Positions 2,392 through 39,500 of a DNA stretch of 64,000 nt are shown piece after piece. A program made the position numbers and the translations under genes. This DNA comes from an uncultured Planctomycetaceae bacterium. Its GTDB lineage: Bacteria > Planctomycetota > Phycisphaerae > SM23-33. The stretch lies in contig CAYRVX010000003.1 of the NCBI GenBank assembly GCA_964427875.1, positions 46,910 to 110,909 of the forward strand, given 5' to 3'. The notes below the pieces were generated by a model. The model had not been told where the DNA came from. It searched no databases and worked only from the letters and a program-made list of their open reading frames with translations. Each line of letters starts with the position of its first letter. The first letter of the stretch is position 1.

Positions 2392-3066
2392 TCACCGGGG
2401 TTGGGGCGCCGGCCGTGTCGGCGCCGGCGGCAGCGAGAGCTTCTGGCTGTAGTAGTACGGCAGGTCTTCGCTCCTCGCGTCCTTCCACAGTCCGCGACGG
2501 GCGGCCAGCGCCTCGGCCTGGAGGCGGAGGAACTCTTCCTTGTGCGGATGATCGTACCGCGGGTCGGCATAGCCGTACCCGAGTCGAATCAGCTCGCGGT
2601 TCAGCATTCGTCCGTCGGGCAGGATCACGTAGGCGAGCAGCCGCCCGTGCTTCCCCCGCGTCTTGCCGGCCAGCAGCTCCAGCTTCACGACCTTGCCGTC
2701 GCAGGCGGAGCGTGAGAACCCGTCGGCCTCCGGGCCGAAGTGCTGGACGCCCCTGTGCGGGTGCTTCGTCTCCGGCGTATCGACGCCCCAGAATCGAACG
2801 CGCGTGTAGCTGCGTCCCTCGTGGGGCGCGTCCACGTCTATCGTATCGCCGTCCACGACCCTCACGACGCGGAAGCTCTGACCGTGGTACCGCTCGTAAT
2901 CGCTCCGAGGCACCTGCGGCCGGATGCCGAACAGCCCCAGCCGATCCGCGACGATCACCGCGCCGACAACGAGCAGCGCGATCGTCAGCCACCGCGCCCG
3001 CTGGGCCGCATACCTCAGCCGCCGCTGACGGTCGGTGAGCTTCTCGCTGGACCTTCTTCGAGGCAT
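2392..3066 (-). CDS. Thermonuclease / staphylococcal-nuclease (SNase) family protein with N-terminal TM anchor
   Basis: Motifs VVDGDTIDVD ... VRFWGVDTPE ... GRLLAYV match the SNase/thermonuclease fold. A hydrophobic segment WLTIALLVVGAVIV precedes them. Confidence 0.8.
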   Translation of the reverse strand: MPRRRSSEKLTDRQRRLRYAAQRARWLTIALLVVGAVIVADRLGLFGIRPQVPRSDYERYHGQSFRVVRVVDGDTIDVDAPHEGRSYTRVRFWGVDTPETKHPHRGVQHFGPEADGFSRSACDGKVVKLELLAGKTRGKHGRLLAYVILPDGRMLNRELIRLGYGYADPRYDHPHKEEFLRLQAEALAARRGLWKDARSEDLPYYYSQKLSLPPAPTRPAPQPR

Positions 3067-3107
3067 ACCACCCGCAAGTGATTCACTTGAGTGTCTCTAC
3101 ATTCGAG

Positions 3108-3793
3108 GGCTGGGCACTTCAGTGCCCGGCTCTCACGTCTCCCGACGCCTCTGATACCTCTTGTACGGAACACCCTCCAGAAACGCCCGCAACTCCAGCG
3201 CCCGCCGCACACCCCGCTCCAACTCCACGTTGACGTGCGTATGCGGGTACTCGCGCCAATCCGCGAGAATCCCATGGCGAGCGCTCTGCGTCAACGTATA
3301 CCGGTACGCCAATCGACACTGTTTCTCGTCGCGGATGCACCCGTCGAAGTAGTCCTGGTGACCCGGGCCCGACCAGAAGGGCACCCTCCTTGCTGCCAGG
3401 AGATCGTTGACCAGCTTTGCGACCGAACCGTGGATCTTCCGCATCATCTCGCCGAGCCGGCCGCCGAGCTTGCAGTACCCCAGCACGTGATAGTGATTGT
3501 CCATCAGCGACGTCACCCAGGGCGTGAAGAGGTGCTCGCGGGCGTAGTGATCGAACCGGTCCCAGAAGACCCGCTTTGCCTGTTCGGAAGCGAAGGCGCC
3601 GAAGCGGTCGGTGCAACGGGCGGTGATGAAGTAGACCTGGTTGTCGCGGTACCATTGTCGGAACCGCAGCTTGCCCCGATAGACGGGGCCCTTGGAGGGC
3701 GAGCTCTTGCGCGTCCAGGAGGACATGAGGTGTTCCCTGTGGGCGTTCCAAGGGTATAGGAACCCAAGAACCGTGCACTGAAGTGCCCAGCCC
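3108..3793 (-). mobile_element. Compact RAYT/IS200-like unit: HUH transposase gene bracketed by 19-bp inverted, palindrome-containing repeats (REP-like)
   Basis: gggctgggcacttcagtgc at 3108-3126 and its exact reverse complement gcactgaagtgcccagccc at 3775-3793. Each contains the hairpin gggcac-ttca-gtgccc. The repeats flank the 197-aa HUH gene. Confidence 0.55.
3133..3726 (-). CDS. IS200/IS605-family TnpA-like / REP-associated tyrosine transposase (RAYT)-like protein
   Basis: HUH motif NHYHVLGY. A C-terminal YRYTLTQSARHGILADW resembles the catalytic-Tyr helix (Y..N/QP..AGLV) of IS200 TnpA/RAYT. 197 aa. Confidence 0.65.
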   Translation of the reverse strand: MSSWTRKSSPSKGPVYRGKLRFRQWYRDNQVYFITARCTDRFGAFASEQAKRVFWDRFDHYAREHLFTPWVTSLMDNHYHVLGYCKLGGRLGEMMRKIHGSVAKLVNDLLAARRVPFWSGPGHQDYFDGCIRDEKQCRLAYRYTLTQSARHGILADWREYPHTHVNVELERGVRRALELRAFLEGVPYKRYQRRRET

Positions 3794-3802
3794 TTGGGGC
3801 GC

Positions 3803-5026
3803 TCAACGTTTCTTCGCCTTCCTTTGAGTCTTCGTGCCCAGATCGAAGGCGTCGTGGACGATTCTCAGGGCCCTCCTGCCCTCGTTGCGGTCGATGATAC
3901 AGGAGATCTTGATCTCGCTGGTCGTGATGTTCTGGATGTTGATCTTCGCCTTTGCCAGGGCCGCGAACATCCGCTCCGCCACGGCGGTGTGAATTCGCAT
4001 GCCCATGCCCACGACGGAGACCTTCGCGAGATGGTCCTCGAACGTCGCGTGACACTCGAGCGTCTTGCAGAGCCCGGCGATCACCTCCCTTGCCTCGGGC
4101 AGGTCGGGCAGGTCCACCGTGAAGGCCACCGTCGCGCTCCTGTCTCGGCCGATCGTCTGGATGATGTCGTCCACGACGATGCTGCGCGTGGCGATGGTGT
4201 GGAAGATGGTAGCCGCGACGCCCGGCCGGTCGGGAACGCCTCGCAGGGTCACCCTCGCGAGCTTGTCCTTCAGCGCCACGCCGCTGACCACGATTCGCTC
4301 CATGGATTCCGTTTCCGCCACGATCATCGTTCCTTTTCTGTTGTTCAGGCTGCTTCGCACGTGGATGGGCACGTCGTACCTCTTGGCGAACTCGATGGCC
4401 CGGTTGTGCAGGACGCTCGCGCCGAGGCTGGCCAGCTCGAGCATCTCGTCGTAGCTGATCCGGGCGATCTTGCGGGCGTTGGGGACGATCCGCGGGTCGG
4501 CCGTGAAAATCCCGTCCACGTCCGTGTAGTTCTCGCAGACCTCGGCATCAAGCGCCGCGGCAATGGCCACCAGCGTCACGTTGCTGCCCCCCCTCCCGAG
4601 CGTCGTGACGTGACCGGCCTCCGTGATGCCCTGAAAGCCCGCGACAATCACGATCCGCCCGGCGCCCAGCGACTGGCGAAGGCGACGAACGTCGATGGAC
4701 TTGATCTTGGCCTTCGTGTGCACGTCGTCGGTGATGATCCCGATCTGCCCGGCCGTGAAACTGATCGCCGGGGCGCCCATCTCCTCCAGGGCCATCGCCA
4801 TCAGCGAGATGGTCACCTGCTCCCCGGTGGCCAGCAGTTGGTCCATCTCCCGCTTGGGCGGGTTGTCGGTGATCTGGCCGGCCAGGTCCACCAGGCGGTC
4901 CGTCGTATCTGCCATGGCCGACACGACCATGGCGACCTGGTATCCGGCCTTCCGGGTGCGAATGGCGCGCCGCGCCGCGGAGCGGATCTTGTCCGCGCCG
5001 GCGACGCTCGTGCCGCCGAATTTCAT
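3803..5026 (-). CDS. lysC: Aspartate kinase
   Basis: MKFGGTSV start (ATG at 5026). Kinase motifs VVSAM, GFQG, GRGGSD-like, and C-terminal ACT domains. The upstream 33 codons of the ORF are likely not translated. Confidence 0.9.
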   Translation of the reverse strand: MKFGGTSVAGADKIRSAARRAIRTRKAGYQVAMVVSAMADTTDRLVDLAGQITDNPPKREMDQLLATGEQVTISLMAMALEEMGAPAISFTAGQIGIITDDVHTKAKIKSIDVRRLRQSLGAGRIVIVAGFQGITEAGHVTTLGRGGSNVTLVAIAAALDAEVCENYTDVDGIFTADPRIVPNARKIARISYDEMLELASLGASVLHNRAIEFAKRYDVPIHVRSSLNNRKGTMIVAETESMERIVVSGVALKDKLARVTLRGVPDRPGVAATIFHTIATRSIVVDDIIQTIGRDRSATVAFTVDLPDLPEAREVIAGLCKTLECHATFEDHLAKVSVVGMGMRIHTAVAERMFAALAKAKINIQNITTSEIKISCIIDRNEGRRALRIVHDAFDLGTKTQRKAKKR

Positions 5027-5173
5027 CACCACGATGCCCACGTTCGATTCGTGCTCCGTCCGGAATCCCGTGCGCAATAAGGGGCGCTTCTTGCCCGGCG
5101 AGCCCAGGCAATGTAGCTTATTCACGCGGGATTTCCACCACTATTTGCCGCACCGGGGCGGGAGAGGACCGAC

Positions 5174-38154: not shown

Positions 38155-38453
38155 GGCATGGTTCAAACATGCGCAGCCGGTAGCCGAAGCGGCCAGGGCC
38201 TTGGCACATTTGTGAGCCCAAGATCCGAAGGTCGTTGCCGGCTGCCGGCTGCCGGCTGCGCTGGTCTCGTGGCGACCGGTCCGTTACCGCCGAGCCGACT
38301 GCAACCAAACACTGACCCCTGCTGAACCAACCCCGAATCACCCCCGGCAAAATCTTGCGCCCGCCCTCGTAAATGCCTATTTCACAGGTGTTTATAGACG
38401 CAATCGCCCAAAATGGCTTTGTTTCGTAAAAAGACTTATGCCGGACCATTCGC

Positions 38454-38498
38454 AGCCACAAAGGTCACAAAGGTCACAAAGGTCACAGAGGTCACGGG
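38454..38498 (+). repeat. Tandem 9-mer (aggtcacaa) x4-5
   Basis: gccacaaaggtcacaaaggtcacaaaggtcacagaggtcacgg. An inverted partial copy aagtgaccg lies at 38511-38519. Confidence 0.8.
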
Positions 38499-38542
38499 GT
38501 AGATAACTCAAAGTGACCGATTCGCCAGCTTCCCGGGAGGTG

Positions 38543-38732
38543 CTCGTTGACTCGTGAATTCGTTAACTCGTTGATTCGTCAAGAACTCCGCCCTGGCCAC
38601 TCGGCGGATTCGTTGCACGACCCATGGCAGCCGGCACAGCTTCTCAGTTGCCGAGCCAGCAAAGCAAAGCCCAACATCTCTTCGGGCAATATCTTTCCAG
38701 TTAACGAGTTAACGAATTAACGGATCAACGGG
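38543..38732 (+). repeat. Pair of ~28-bp inverted repeats (cgttgactcgtgaattcgttaactcgtt / aacgagttaacgaattaacggatcaacg) bracketing ~130 bp: a MITE-like or protein-binding element
   Basis: Arm 1 at 38543-38572. Arm 2 at 38703-38732, which is the reverse complement with 2-3 mismatches. The arms are built from cgtt(a/g)a(c/t)tcgtt sub-repeats. Confidence 0.6.
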
Positions 38733-39080
38733 CAACCCGTAAGCCAATCAGGATCGGTCAGTTTGAGTAGATAAGATATCGAAATGGCGTGCTTTTGCAA
38801 ACGCGCAACGGACAGAGTGTTCTCTCACGGCCCCGAGCGTTTCTGTCGTAACCGCCTGCAAAATCATAACCTTTGTGTTCTTTGTGCCCTCTGTGGCGAA
38901 CAATCCGCGTTTGGCTTCGTTTCGCGTTTTTCTTCTGATCCGCCGCCTTCCTTTTCCTTGTGATCACGATCCCCCCGTAGCAGGCATATACATCTCGCAG
39001 CCCTTTTTGCACAACGAAAATCGCCAGATTGCAGAAAAACTTCCGGCCGCGCCCGCCGGCAAGGGCGGGCGTAGGCTGAA

Positions 39081-39233
39081 GGTCGTAGGTCATAGGTCGT
39101 AGGTCGTAGGGCAGACCGTGGGACCGGATACCGTGGGGCCGTGGGACCGGATACCGTCGGACCGCAAGACCGTGCCACCGGATACCGTCAGACCGGCAAT
39201 CGTCCTCGTCGTCGTCCTCGTCCTCGTCCTCGG
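39081..39233 (+). repeat. Consecutive micro/minisatellite blocks: (ggtcgtag)x4, a ~23-bp unit (ccgtgggaccggataccgt) x3, and (cgtcct)x5
   Basis: Read directly: ggtcgtaggtcataggtcgtaggtcgtagg; gaccgtgggaccggataccgtggggccgtgggaccggataccgtcgg...ccgtgccaccggataccgt; cgtcctcgtcgtcgtcctcgtcctcgtcctcgg. Confidence 0.8.
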
Positions 39234-39246
39234 CCGTCTCTTCTCG

Positions 39247-39450
39247 GGGTTCCGAGTTCCGGCCTCCTCGGGGGCAGGCGGCCGTGCCGGCCGCCGTTAA
39301 ACGCTCCGCGCCTCCCTGCCCGGTAGGCAGCCTCCGGGTTCCGAGTTCCGAGTTCCGACCTCTTCGGGGCCAGGCGGCCGTGCCGGCCGCCGTTAAACGC
39401 TCCGCGCTCCGGGCTCCGGGTTCCGAGTTCCGCCTTCCCGGTTCCCGCTT
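39247..39450 (+). repeat. ~96-bp-period direct repeat (2 full + 1 partial copies), each with the perfect palindrome ggcggccg-tgc-cggccgcc and (gttccga)n
   Basis: Copies at 39247-39311 and 39337-39407 (gttccgagttccg.cctc.tcgggg.caggcggccgtgccggccgccgttaaacgctccgcgc). A partial copy sits at 39416-39450. Confidence 0.75.
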
Positions 39451-39454
39451 GCGA

Positions 39455-39500
39455 CTTCGTCATTCGTCATTCGTCATTCATCATTGATCATTCGGCATTG
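39455..39500 (+). repeat. Tandem heptamer (tcgtcat) x3 with degenerate copies (tcatcat, tgatcat, tcggcat)
   Basis: cttcgtcattcgtcattcgtcattcatcattgatcattcggcattg. Confidence 0.8.

Follow-up and report, generated by a model that had tools for sequence, protein, structure and literature searches.

A probable small REPtron built around a divergent RAYT-like gene in an uncultured member of the Planctomycetota

The window analyzed here is a stretch of 64,000 nucleotides from an uncultured Planctomycetaceae bacterium (GTDB lineage Bacteria; Planctomycetota; Phycisphaerae; SM23-33), taken from contig CAYRVX010000003.1 of assembly GCA_964427875.1 (positions 46,910 to 110,909, forward strand). Near its start, between genes for a thermonuclease (SNase) and an aspartate kinase (AK), lies a compact cassette consisting of a gene for a HUH-Y1 (single-tyrosine) nuclease and two inverted copies of a short hairpin-forming repeat. 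A sequence-only reading had described it as a minimal cassette of a repetitive extragenic palindrome (REP) and a REP-associated tyrosine transposase (RAYT), and here we examine the gene, its repeats, and their relatives in other genomes. The features of the locus are listed below; handles such as L004 denote sequences compared with the window.

2392-3066, minus strand: thermonuclease (SNase) gene, co-oriented with the HUH gene
3106-3133, plus strand: downstream REP (relative to the gene), AGGG-CTGGGCAC-TTCA-GTGCCCGG-CTCT, fitting the family consensus in the form nn[CA]GG[AGC]-CTGGNC[AG]C-TTCA-G[CT]GNCCAG-T
3133-3726, minus strand: RAYT-like HUH-Y1 nuclease gene with H78-Y79-H80, W118, predicted catalytic Y143, and Q147 (Y-x3-Q-S)
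3727-3766, minus strand: leader of 40 nt from the upstream REP to the ATG, conserved in L004
3767-3794, minus strand (the sense strand of the gene): upstream REP, AGGG-CTGGGCAC-TTCA-GTGCACGG-TTCT
3803-5125, minus strand: aspartate kinase (AK) gene, co-oriented with the HUH gene

Read along the gene, the order is a foot-first REP, the gene, and a reversed REP. As claimed from the letters alone, the gene is 594 bp long and encodes an HUH/Tyr protein (197 aa) with the motif NHYHVL; no second copy occurs within the window. The whole cassette measures 689 bp and nearly fills the gap between the SNase and AK genes, leaving free spacers of 39 nt between the outer end of the downstream REP and the SNase start codon and 8 nt between the outer end of the upstream REP and the AK stop codon.

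A 20-mer, AGGGCTGGGCACTTCAGTGC, is common to both arms without mismatch; its plus-strand copy spans 3106-3125 and its minus-strand copy 3775-3794. The 19-nt inverted repeat reported earlier is real and forms part of this 20-mer, with its left copy at 3107-3125, one base away from where it had been placed (3108-3126). Allowing up to 3 mismatches, AGGGCTGGGCACTTCAGTGC has just 2 matches in the 64 kb, against 0.01 expected from shuffled sequence, and orthologous loci with 88% nucleotide identity have kept the repeat. That such a repeat arose by chance in GC-rich DNA, an idea supported only by the high regional GC content, is already refuted by these observations, and we give it practically no weight. 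At full length the inverted repeat is 28 nt long, 26 of its 28 positions being complementary (93%), with 633 nt between its arms (3106-3133 and 3767-3794). The proposed spacing of 7 to 25 bp from either end of the gene holds on the left, where 7 nt separate the 19-mer from the stop codon and the 28-nt arm reaches 1 nt into that codon, but not on the right, where both lie upstream of the ATG, the 19-mer by 48 nt and the 28-nt arm by 40 nt.

Each copy does contain a hairpin, as had been noted, with a stem that exceeds the 6 bp first given to it. The downstream REP has a GG foot, an 8-bp stem with one T:G position, and a C-TTCA-G apex. Its arm is an imperfect palindrome with 14-nt arms (3105-3118 and 3121-3134, 86%) and as single-stranded DNA folds on the plus strand at -12.2 kcal/mol (z = -4.25). 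The right arm folds on the minus strand at -10.8 kcal/mol (z = -2.47), and both arms fold more weakly on the opposite strand. In the upstream REP, the stem is partly degenerate in the window, while its orthologues in L004 and L221 retain an intact GTGCCCGG arm.

The protein points to a RAYT relationship. Its sole match among the NCBIfam models is NF047646, REP_Tyr_transpos (60.8 bits, E = 1.3e-16), and all 30 aligned members of the family (the window protein and 29 homologues) match this model alone, the best at 3.5e-20. Using an AlphaFold (AF2) model of the window protein (pLDDT 77, pTM 0.76), the top Foldseek match was 4ER8_A, the E. coli TnpA_REP with its REP hairpin (E = 1.7e-6, TM 0.70, 153 columns), followed by the TnpA proteins of ISDra2, IS608, and IS200 at E values of about 4e-4 to 2e-3, roughly 200-fold weaker. 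An hhalign comparison with E. coli RayT (from NC_000913) paired NHYH with HMH, Y143 with the catalytic tyrosine, and Q147 with N119. H78-Y79-H80, Y143, and Q147 are invariant in the 30 homologues, as are the remainder of NHYH, W118, YFDGCIR, QCR, RH, and three cysteines, and conservation extends over the whole length of the protein. The tyrosine motif of the family reads Y-x3-Q-S, with A or C in place of S in some members, and the conserved tryptophan is followed by S, G, or R.

Homologues formed 2,096 clusters at E values up to 1e-3. The best 120 are 65 to 91% identical and, where these carry a source taxon name, they come from metagenome-assembled genomes (MAGs) of Planctomycetota. Most of the family is unnamed or annotated as 'hypothetical', with some members called RayT (JGI). 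As a separate observation, C38, C130, and C137, together with histidines outside the HUH motif (H99 and H151), are invariant across the 30 homologues; judging from their conservation, these residues may mark a structural metal site absent from E. coli RayT.

We surveyed 80 distinct homologous loci, metagenomic ones among them, for hairpins, defined as an 8-bp stem closed by C-NNNN-G within 300 nt of the gene. Such hairpins were present upstream of the gene in 45 of 74 loci, downstream in 45 of 77, and on both sides in 33 of 71. Their density reached 2.81 per kb near the gene compared with 0.062 per kb farther off in the same loci, a 45-fold difference. The picture held in a test without selection for pairing: 53% of CTTCAG sites near the gene had at least 6 of 7 outer stem pairs, compared with 7% elsewhere, and most of these well-paired distant sites were further occurrences of this REP. 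In 29 of 37 loci the upstream REP nearest the gene is foot-first, and in 33 of 40 the nearest downstream one is reversed. With F for foot-first and R for reversed, the commonest REP-containing architectures are RF-gene-RF, in 10 loci, and F-gene-R, in 9 loci, the latter being the form in the window. The epithet 'minimal' was apt, as the window has one REP per side and many relatives have a doublet per side.

The REPs of the family follow the consensus nn[CA]GG[AGC]-CTGGTC[AG]C-TTCA-G[CT]GACCAG-T, in which the apex and the GG foot are nearly invariant; within the foot, [CA]GG[AGC], the two conserved G positions occur in 91 and 87 of 96 copies. Stem cores vary from locus to locus and agree across one gene (GCAC, TCAC, TCGC, CCGC, CTCGC, GCGGAC, and others). 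Homologues in unrelated contexts (L005, L006, and L008-L012) have the same hairpin frame with other stem cores, for example CTGGCCGC-TTCA-GCGGCCAG and CTGGTCAC-TTCA-GTGACCAG, compared with CTGGGCAC-TTCA-GTGCCC(A/G)G in the window. Stem positions show compensatory pairs, A-T in 44 and G-C in 51 copies at one position and T-A in 74, C-G in 12, and G-C in 10 at another, although the set was chosen for pairing and these counts illustrate the compensatory pattern without proving it. Two common REP variants were also seen beside the genes of L148-L212: in one, the 3' arm has a single-base bulge (GTGAaCCAG); in the other, a symmetric TTAA loop makes a fully palindromic 30-mer with a foot on both strands.

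The hairpins might instead be mainly regulatory RNA or DNA structures, such as terminators, mRNA stabilizers, or attenuators, with the HUH gene domesticated and unrelated to their spread. AK, the HUH gene, and SNase all lie on the minus strand with the hairpins exactly in both intergenic gaps, and REPs elsewhere influence termination and mRNA stability (PMC6006769). However, a promoter and terminator scan of 2900-4000 gave no match and no terminator-like site (a stem with a T-run), and an Rfam scan of 2800-4100 at E values up to 1 returned nothing but a chance 15-bit snoRNA match; nor did the 40-nt leader (3727-3766) contain a sigma-70 consensus. Since each arm prefers to fold on a different strand, a single transcript could contain just one of them in its optimal form. 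Unlike a generic terminator, moreover, this hairpin type covaries with the gene over unrelated contexts and shows the enrichment beside it described above. We consider this explanation decidedly unlikely as the main one, though the hairpins could have a regulatory role as a secondary function.

To follow the repeat beyond homologous loci, an 18-mer core, GGCTGGGCACTTCRGTGC, was scanned against one genome per species; 120 stretches were recovered and the copy counts are lower bounds. Seven Planctomycetota MAGs accounted for 91 of the 120 stretches, with at least 23, 20, 16, 12, 11, 6, and 3 copies. The repeat is thus not confined to the locus, a possibility that would have spoken against a REP family: five other Planctomycetota genomes hold at least 11 to 23 copies each and two more hold 3 to 6. 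Genomes rich in this REP include CAWDLR, CAVWEY, JBDKUC, CAVRAR, and CAWGNG. All 91 copies occur in the full context gAGGGCTGGGCACTTCAGTGCCCAGT with a perfect 8-bp stem, mostly as singlets. The remaining 29 matches, in unrelated bacteria, number at most one per genome, are without the gAGGGCTGGGCACTTCAGTGCCCAGT context, and look like chance.

A codon-periodicity test found the same reading frame on both flanks of 7% of dispersed REPs compared with 33% of random positions, and no coding signal on either flank of 47% compared with 24%; the dispersed REPs are thus mostly extragenic. Overlap with stop-to-stop open reading frames (ORFs) rich in GC at third codon positions (58% versus 65%) was uninformative in this respect, since the REP is open in five of its six frames and long spurious ORFs arise in GC-rich DNA. 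Closer to the gene, extra REPs of the same type occur 0.9 to 2.8 kb away in L006, L149, L158, and L165, and 10 kb of extra flank in L221, L006, and L011 revealed one further nearby doublet only (L006).

Perfect heptamer arrays, either (CGGCAGT)n or (GGGCAGT)n, directly follow many of the dispersed REPs (L013-L132), and tracts resembling (GGGGAGA)n precede them. Within 100 nt, 14% of REPs have tandem 5- to 9-mers of at least three repeats on the 5' side and 18% have them on the 3' side, compared with 1.1% of random 100-nt windows. Such arrays could be a by-product of repeated nicking and rejoining, or could reflect a common preference for the same intergenic sites.

The dispersal data bear on another possibility, that the locus is a 'TIRtron'-like relic in the TIRYT sense of Di Nocera, in which the repeats are local terminal repeats only, no dispersed family exists here, and the enzyme is idle or has another role. 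Such a concept has been published (PMC3733652), the window holds two copies only in 64 kb, both with imperfect stems, and its lineage has singlets where relatives have doublets. On the other hand, each arm is itself palindromic in the REP frame of the family, related genomes have the identical core scattered in copies that are mostly extragenic, and the gene is under purifying selection, as described next. We regard a relic of this kind as unlikely.

Synteny and divergence around the cassette were examined in relatives of the window. L004 (88% nucleotide identity), L133, and L221 retain the order AK-RAYT-SNase together with both REPs, and with hairpins of the same frame beside homologues elsewhere, the repeats are not missing at homologous loci. 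Between the window and L004, the RAYT-like gene has a ratio of nonsynonymous to synonymous divergence (dN/dS) of 0.185 with dS of 0.30, compared with 0.25 and 0.23 for aspartate kinase and 0.30 and 0.34 for thermonuclease. Given this low dN/dS and a dS close to that of its neighbors, the gene is under selection and has diverged along with them.

Relatives without the cassette are slightly more distant, with AK 83 to 84% identical compared with 88% for L004. In L213 and L214 (3946-4001, orthologous to window 3066-3803), AK and thermonuclease are separated by a clean 54-bp spacer with no REP. In L215 (3835-4001), the gene is absent and a decayed REP, GATCGGGCCGTTGCGTGCCCAGCCCTCGGATG, is homologous to the downstream arm of the window and its flank. 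The gap there is 165 bp as annotated, or about 127 nt to an earlier proposed start, and the thermonuclease start appears to have been called about 38 nt too late; the gap contains a terminator-like hairpin, and the solo REP lies just before the thermonuclease start. The cassette is thus gained or lost at one syntenic site. A published idea holds that REPs decay without their RAYT, and the solo REP of L215, with its lost stem, fits such decay.

Presence and absence at a syntenic site among close relatives is also what an autonomous IS200-type insertion sequence (IS) would show, that is, a unit with TnpA alone that moves via a single-stranded circle. The HUH-Y1 fold and Y-x3-Q motif, as in IS200 and IS608 TnpA, agree with such an element, as does a compact 689-bp cassette in an intergenic gap. 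In contrast to its distinct same-strand left and right ends (LE and RE), however, the end hairpins here are inverted copies of one 28-mer, and the hairpin is dispersed alone, without the gene. There is one copy in the 64-kb window, the identical protein has been seen in this one context only, and a dS matching that of the neighbors with a dN/dS of 0.185 indicates a long-term resident and no recent arrival. Nor does the protein cluster with IS200 TnpA: the Pfam model Y1_Tnp scores far under its cut-off, no NCBIfam IS200 model matched where REP_Tyr_transpos did, and the best fold is 4ER8. An autonomous IS200-type element is accordingly disfavored and, in our assessment, very improbable.

Two further observations concern the surroundings of the cassette. 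The AK ORF (3803-5125) has a listed length of 440 aa, counted from a GTG, orthologues being called at 407 to 416 aa, and its true start is probably about 25 to 30 codons downstream of the listed GTG. Far from the cassette and unrelated to it, the interval 38236-39456 of the window contains short perfect tandem repeats (TGCCGGC x3, CACAAAGGT x3, TCGTCC x3, GTTCCGA x3, and TTCGTCA x3).

Among known systems, the closest likeness is to E. coli RayT/TnpA_REP (YafM, 4ER8; subclass 2.2 of Quentin et al. 2018, Bertels group 2), likewise a single-copy HUH-Y1 gene with inverted hairpin repeats that are also dispersed extragenically, here in related genomes. It gives the best fold match, its HUH motif, catalytic tyrosine, and N119 equivalent can be aligned, and its NCBIfam model is the only one found. 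The two proteins differ in that identity is 16 to 21%, the score is 60.8 against 80 bits, and the window family has Y-x3-Q-S and NHYH where E. coli RayT has Y-x3-N-P and EHMH. Their REPs differ as well: a GG foot, a short perfect 8-bp stem, and an invariant C-TTCA-G apex in the window family, a GT[AG]G foot in E. coli, with dispersed copies that are mostly singlets for the window REP and BIME/REPIN doublets in E. coli.

Cyanobacterial TnpA_REP of subclass 2.8 (PMC6006769) shares the NHYH motif and a length of about 199 aa, and the REPs of subclasses 2.7 and 2.8, for example GTAGTAAGCACTTCAGTGCT, have the GCAC-TTCA-GTGC apex in common with the window REP (PMC6006769). Compared by published motifs, these subclasses have a GTAG foot, W[YH], and YIHYNP, whereas the window family has a GG foot, W-S/G, and YTLTQS. 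REPtrons with GTAG repeats have been reported in Planctomycetes (Rhodopirellula baltica).

The class 3 TnpA_Y1 of Quentin et al. 2018 (PMC6006769), found in Planctomycetes, Acidobacteria, and Proteobacteria, has been called intermediate between IS200 TnpA and RAYT. Like the window family, it is rich in Planctomycetes, about 180 aa long with extended N-terminal conservation, has a tyrosine motif ending in Q, and is flanked by atypical hairpins that are sometimes high-copy. Its signatures are NHVH, W[TA], and YV[VI][AENY]EQ, compared with NHYH, WS/WG, and Y[TV]LTQS, and its repeat has a CnGA foot with GCCGCGACCGTAAGGGAGCGG and internal loops. This structure, CnGA plus GCCGCGACC...GGGAGCGG, is not that of the window repeat, AGGGCTGGGCACTTCAGTGCCC, which is unrelated to it. 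We therefore rejected membership in class 3 because motifs and repeat type differ, the two being set apart by published motifs and repeats.

IS200/IS605 TnpA (IS608, ISDra2, and IS200) shares with the window protein the HUH-Y1 fold, Y-x3-Q, and, as predicted for the window protein, recognition of hairpins in single-stranded DNA. Those elements have distinct same-strand LE and RE hairpins and are multi-copy, in contrast to the inverted identical hairpins and single resident gene of the window and the gene-less hairpins dispersed in related genomes. In TIRYTs and TIRtrons (Di Nocera et al. 2013, PMC3733652), too, a tyrosine-transposase gene lies between inverted repeats, and some of these terminal inverted repeats are self-complementary and moderately repeated (PMC3733652). 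The window repeat differs in being a short REP-like hairpin common to the whole protein family, without the GGGGWSAS motif.

We conclude that the locus is very probably a small REPtron, in which a resident single-copy gene for a RAYT-type HUH-Y1 single-stranded DNA nuclease/ligase stands between two inverted cognate REPs. The NCBIfam match, the fold, the hairpins flanking the gene across the family, and their dispersal in related genomes bear out the REP/RAYT interpretation that had been offered from sequence. The family represents a divergent example of a known bacterial system for spreading repeats, one that departs from canonical RAYTs in its curated score, in lacking Y-x3-N-P, and in lacking the GTAG foot.

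Several observations weigh against this conclusion. At 60.8 bits, the window protein does not reach the 80-bit cut-off of NF047646, which is an equivalog model, and Pfam Y1_Tnp (PF01797) scores 13.6 bits (E = 0.076), below its gathering cut-off of 23. Searching the PDB by sequence brought up no HUH protein: the window protein on its own gave one irrelevant match (4ats, E = 0.92), and the 30-sequence profile matched no chain. The class 2 RAYT signature, Y-x3-N-P with W-Q, is absent from the family, whose Y-x3-Q-S resembles IS200 TnpA, and the foot of its REPs is GG and not the canonical GT[AG]G. Both arms in the window have a T:G (or worse) stem position, and the REP arms of the window lineage may be decaying. 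The dispersal counts come from related genomes, the genome of the window lying outside the set, and the 120 REP-bearing stretches held no RAYT homologue and did not match the window. Finally, as the sequence-only reading had remarked for the 19-mer, the 64-kb window contains no third copy of the REP, even at 5 mismatches of 20; this absence is uninformative, since some 20 or more copies per multi-Mb genome predicts none in 64 kb either way.

If it works like TnpA_REP and IS608 TnpA, the protein would bind the REP folded as a hairpin on single-stranded DNA and read its invariant C-TTCA-G apex and unpaired GG foot. H78 and H80 would hold a divalent metal, and Y143 would cut near the foot to form a 5'-phosphotyrosine link, with Q147 acting as N119 does in TnpA_REP or Q131 in IS608 TnpA. 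Rejoining would then copy or move REPs round the chromosome, and the gene would stay in place. In the lineage of the window, just one REP per side survives.

It is possible, though we hold it doubtful, that these proteins make up a distinct, phylum-wide class of Planctomycetota HUH-Y1 enzymes, combining an IS200-like Y-x3-Q with a RAYT-like fold and lifestyle, and with GG-foot/C-TTCA-G REPs that are mainly singlets and often sit by heptamer microsatellites. Its cassette would be gained and lost as a unit, and the class might be a living intermediate between IS200 and domesticated REPtrons. If true, it would comprise more than 2,000 clusters that Pfam misses.

The REP/RAYT pair is the best-studied case of a domesticated transposase that maintains a mobile hairpin population, and nearly all work on it concerns Gammaproteobacteria and GTAG-footed REPs. 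The locus described here shows this arrangement in Planctomycetota too, with proteins that standard domain models overlook and another hairpin grammar. Genes of the family now annotated as 'hypothetical protein' could be given a name, and the REP consensus can be used to mask or track these repeats in Planctomycetota assemblies. With the cassette intact in some close relatives, the site empty in others, and a solo REP in decay in another, this locus offers a natural comparison for the dependence of REPs on their RAYT.

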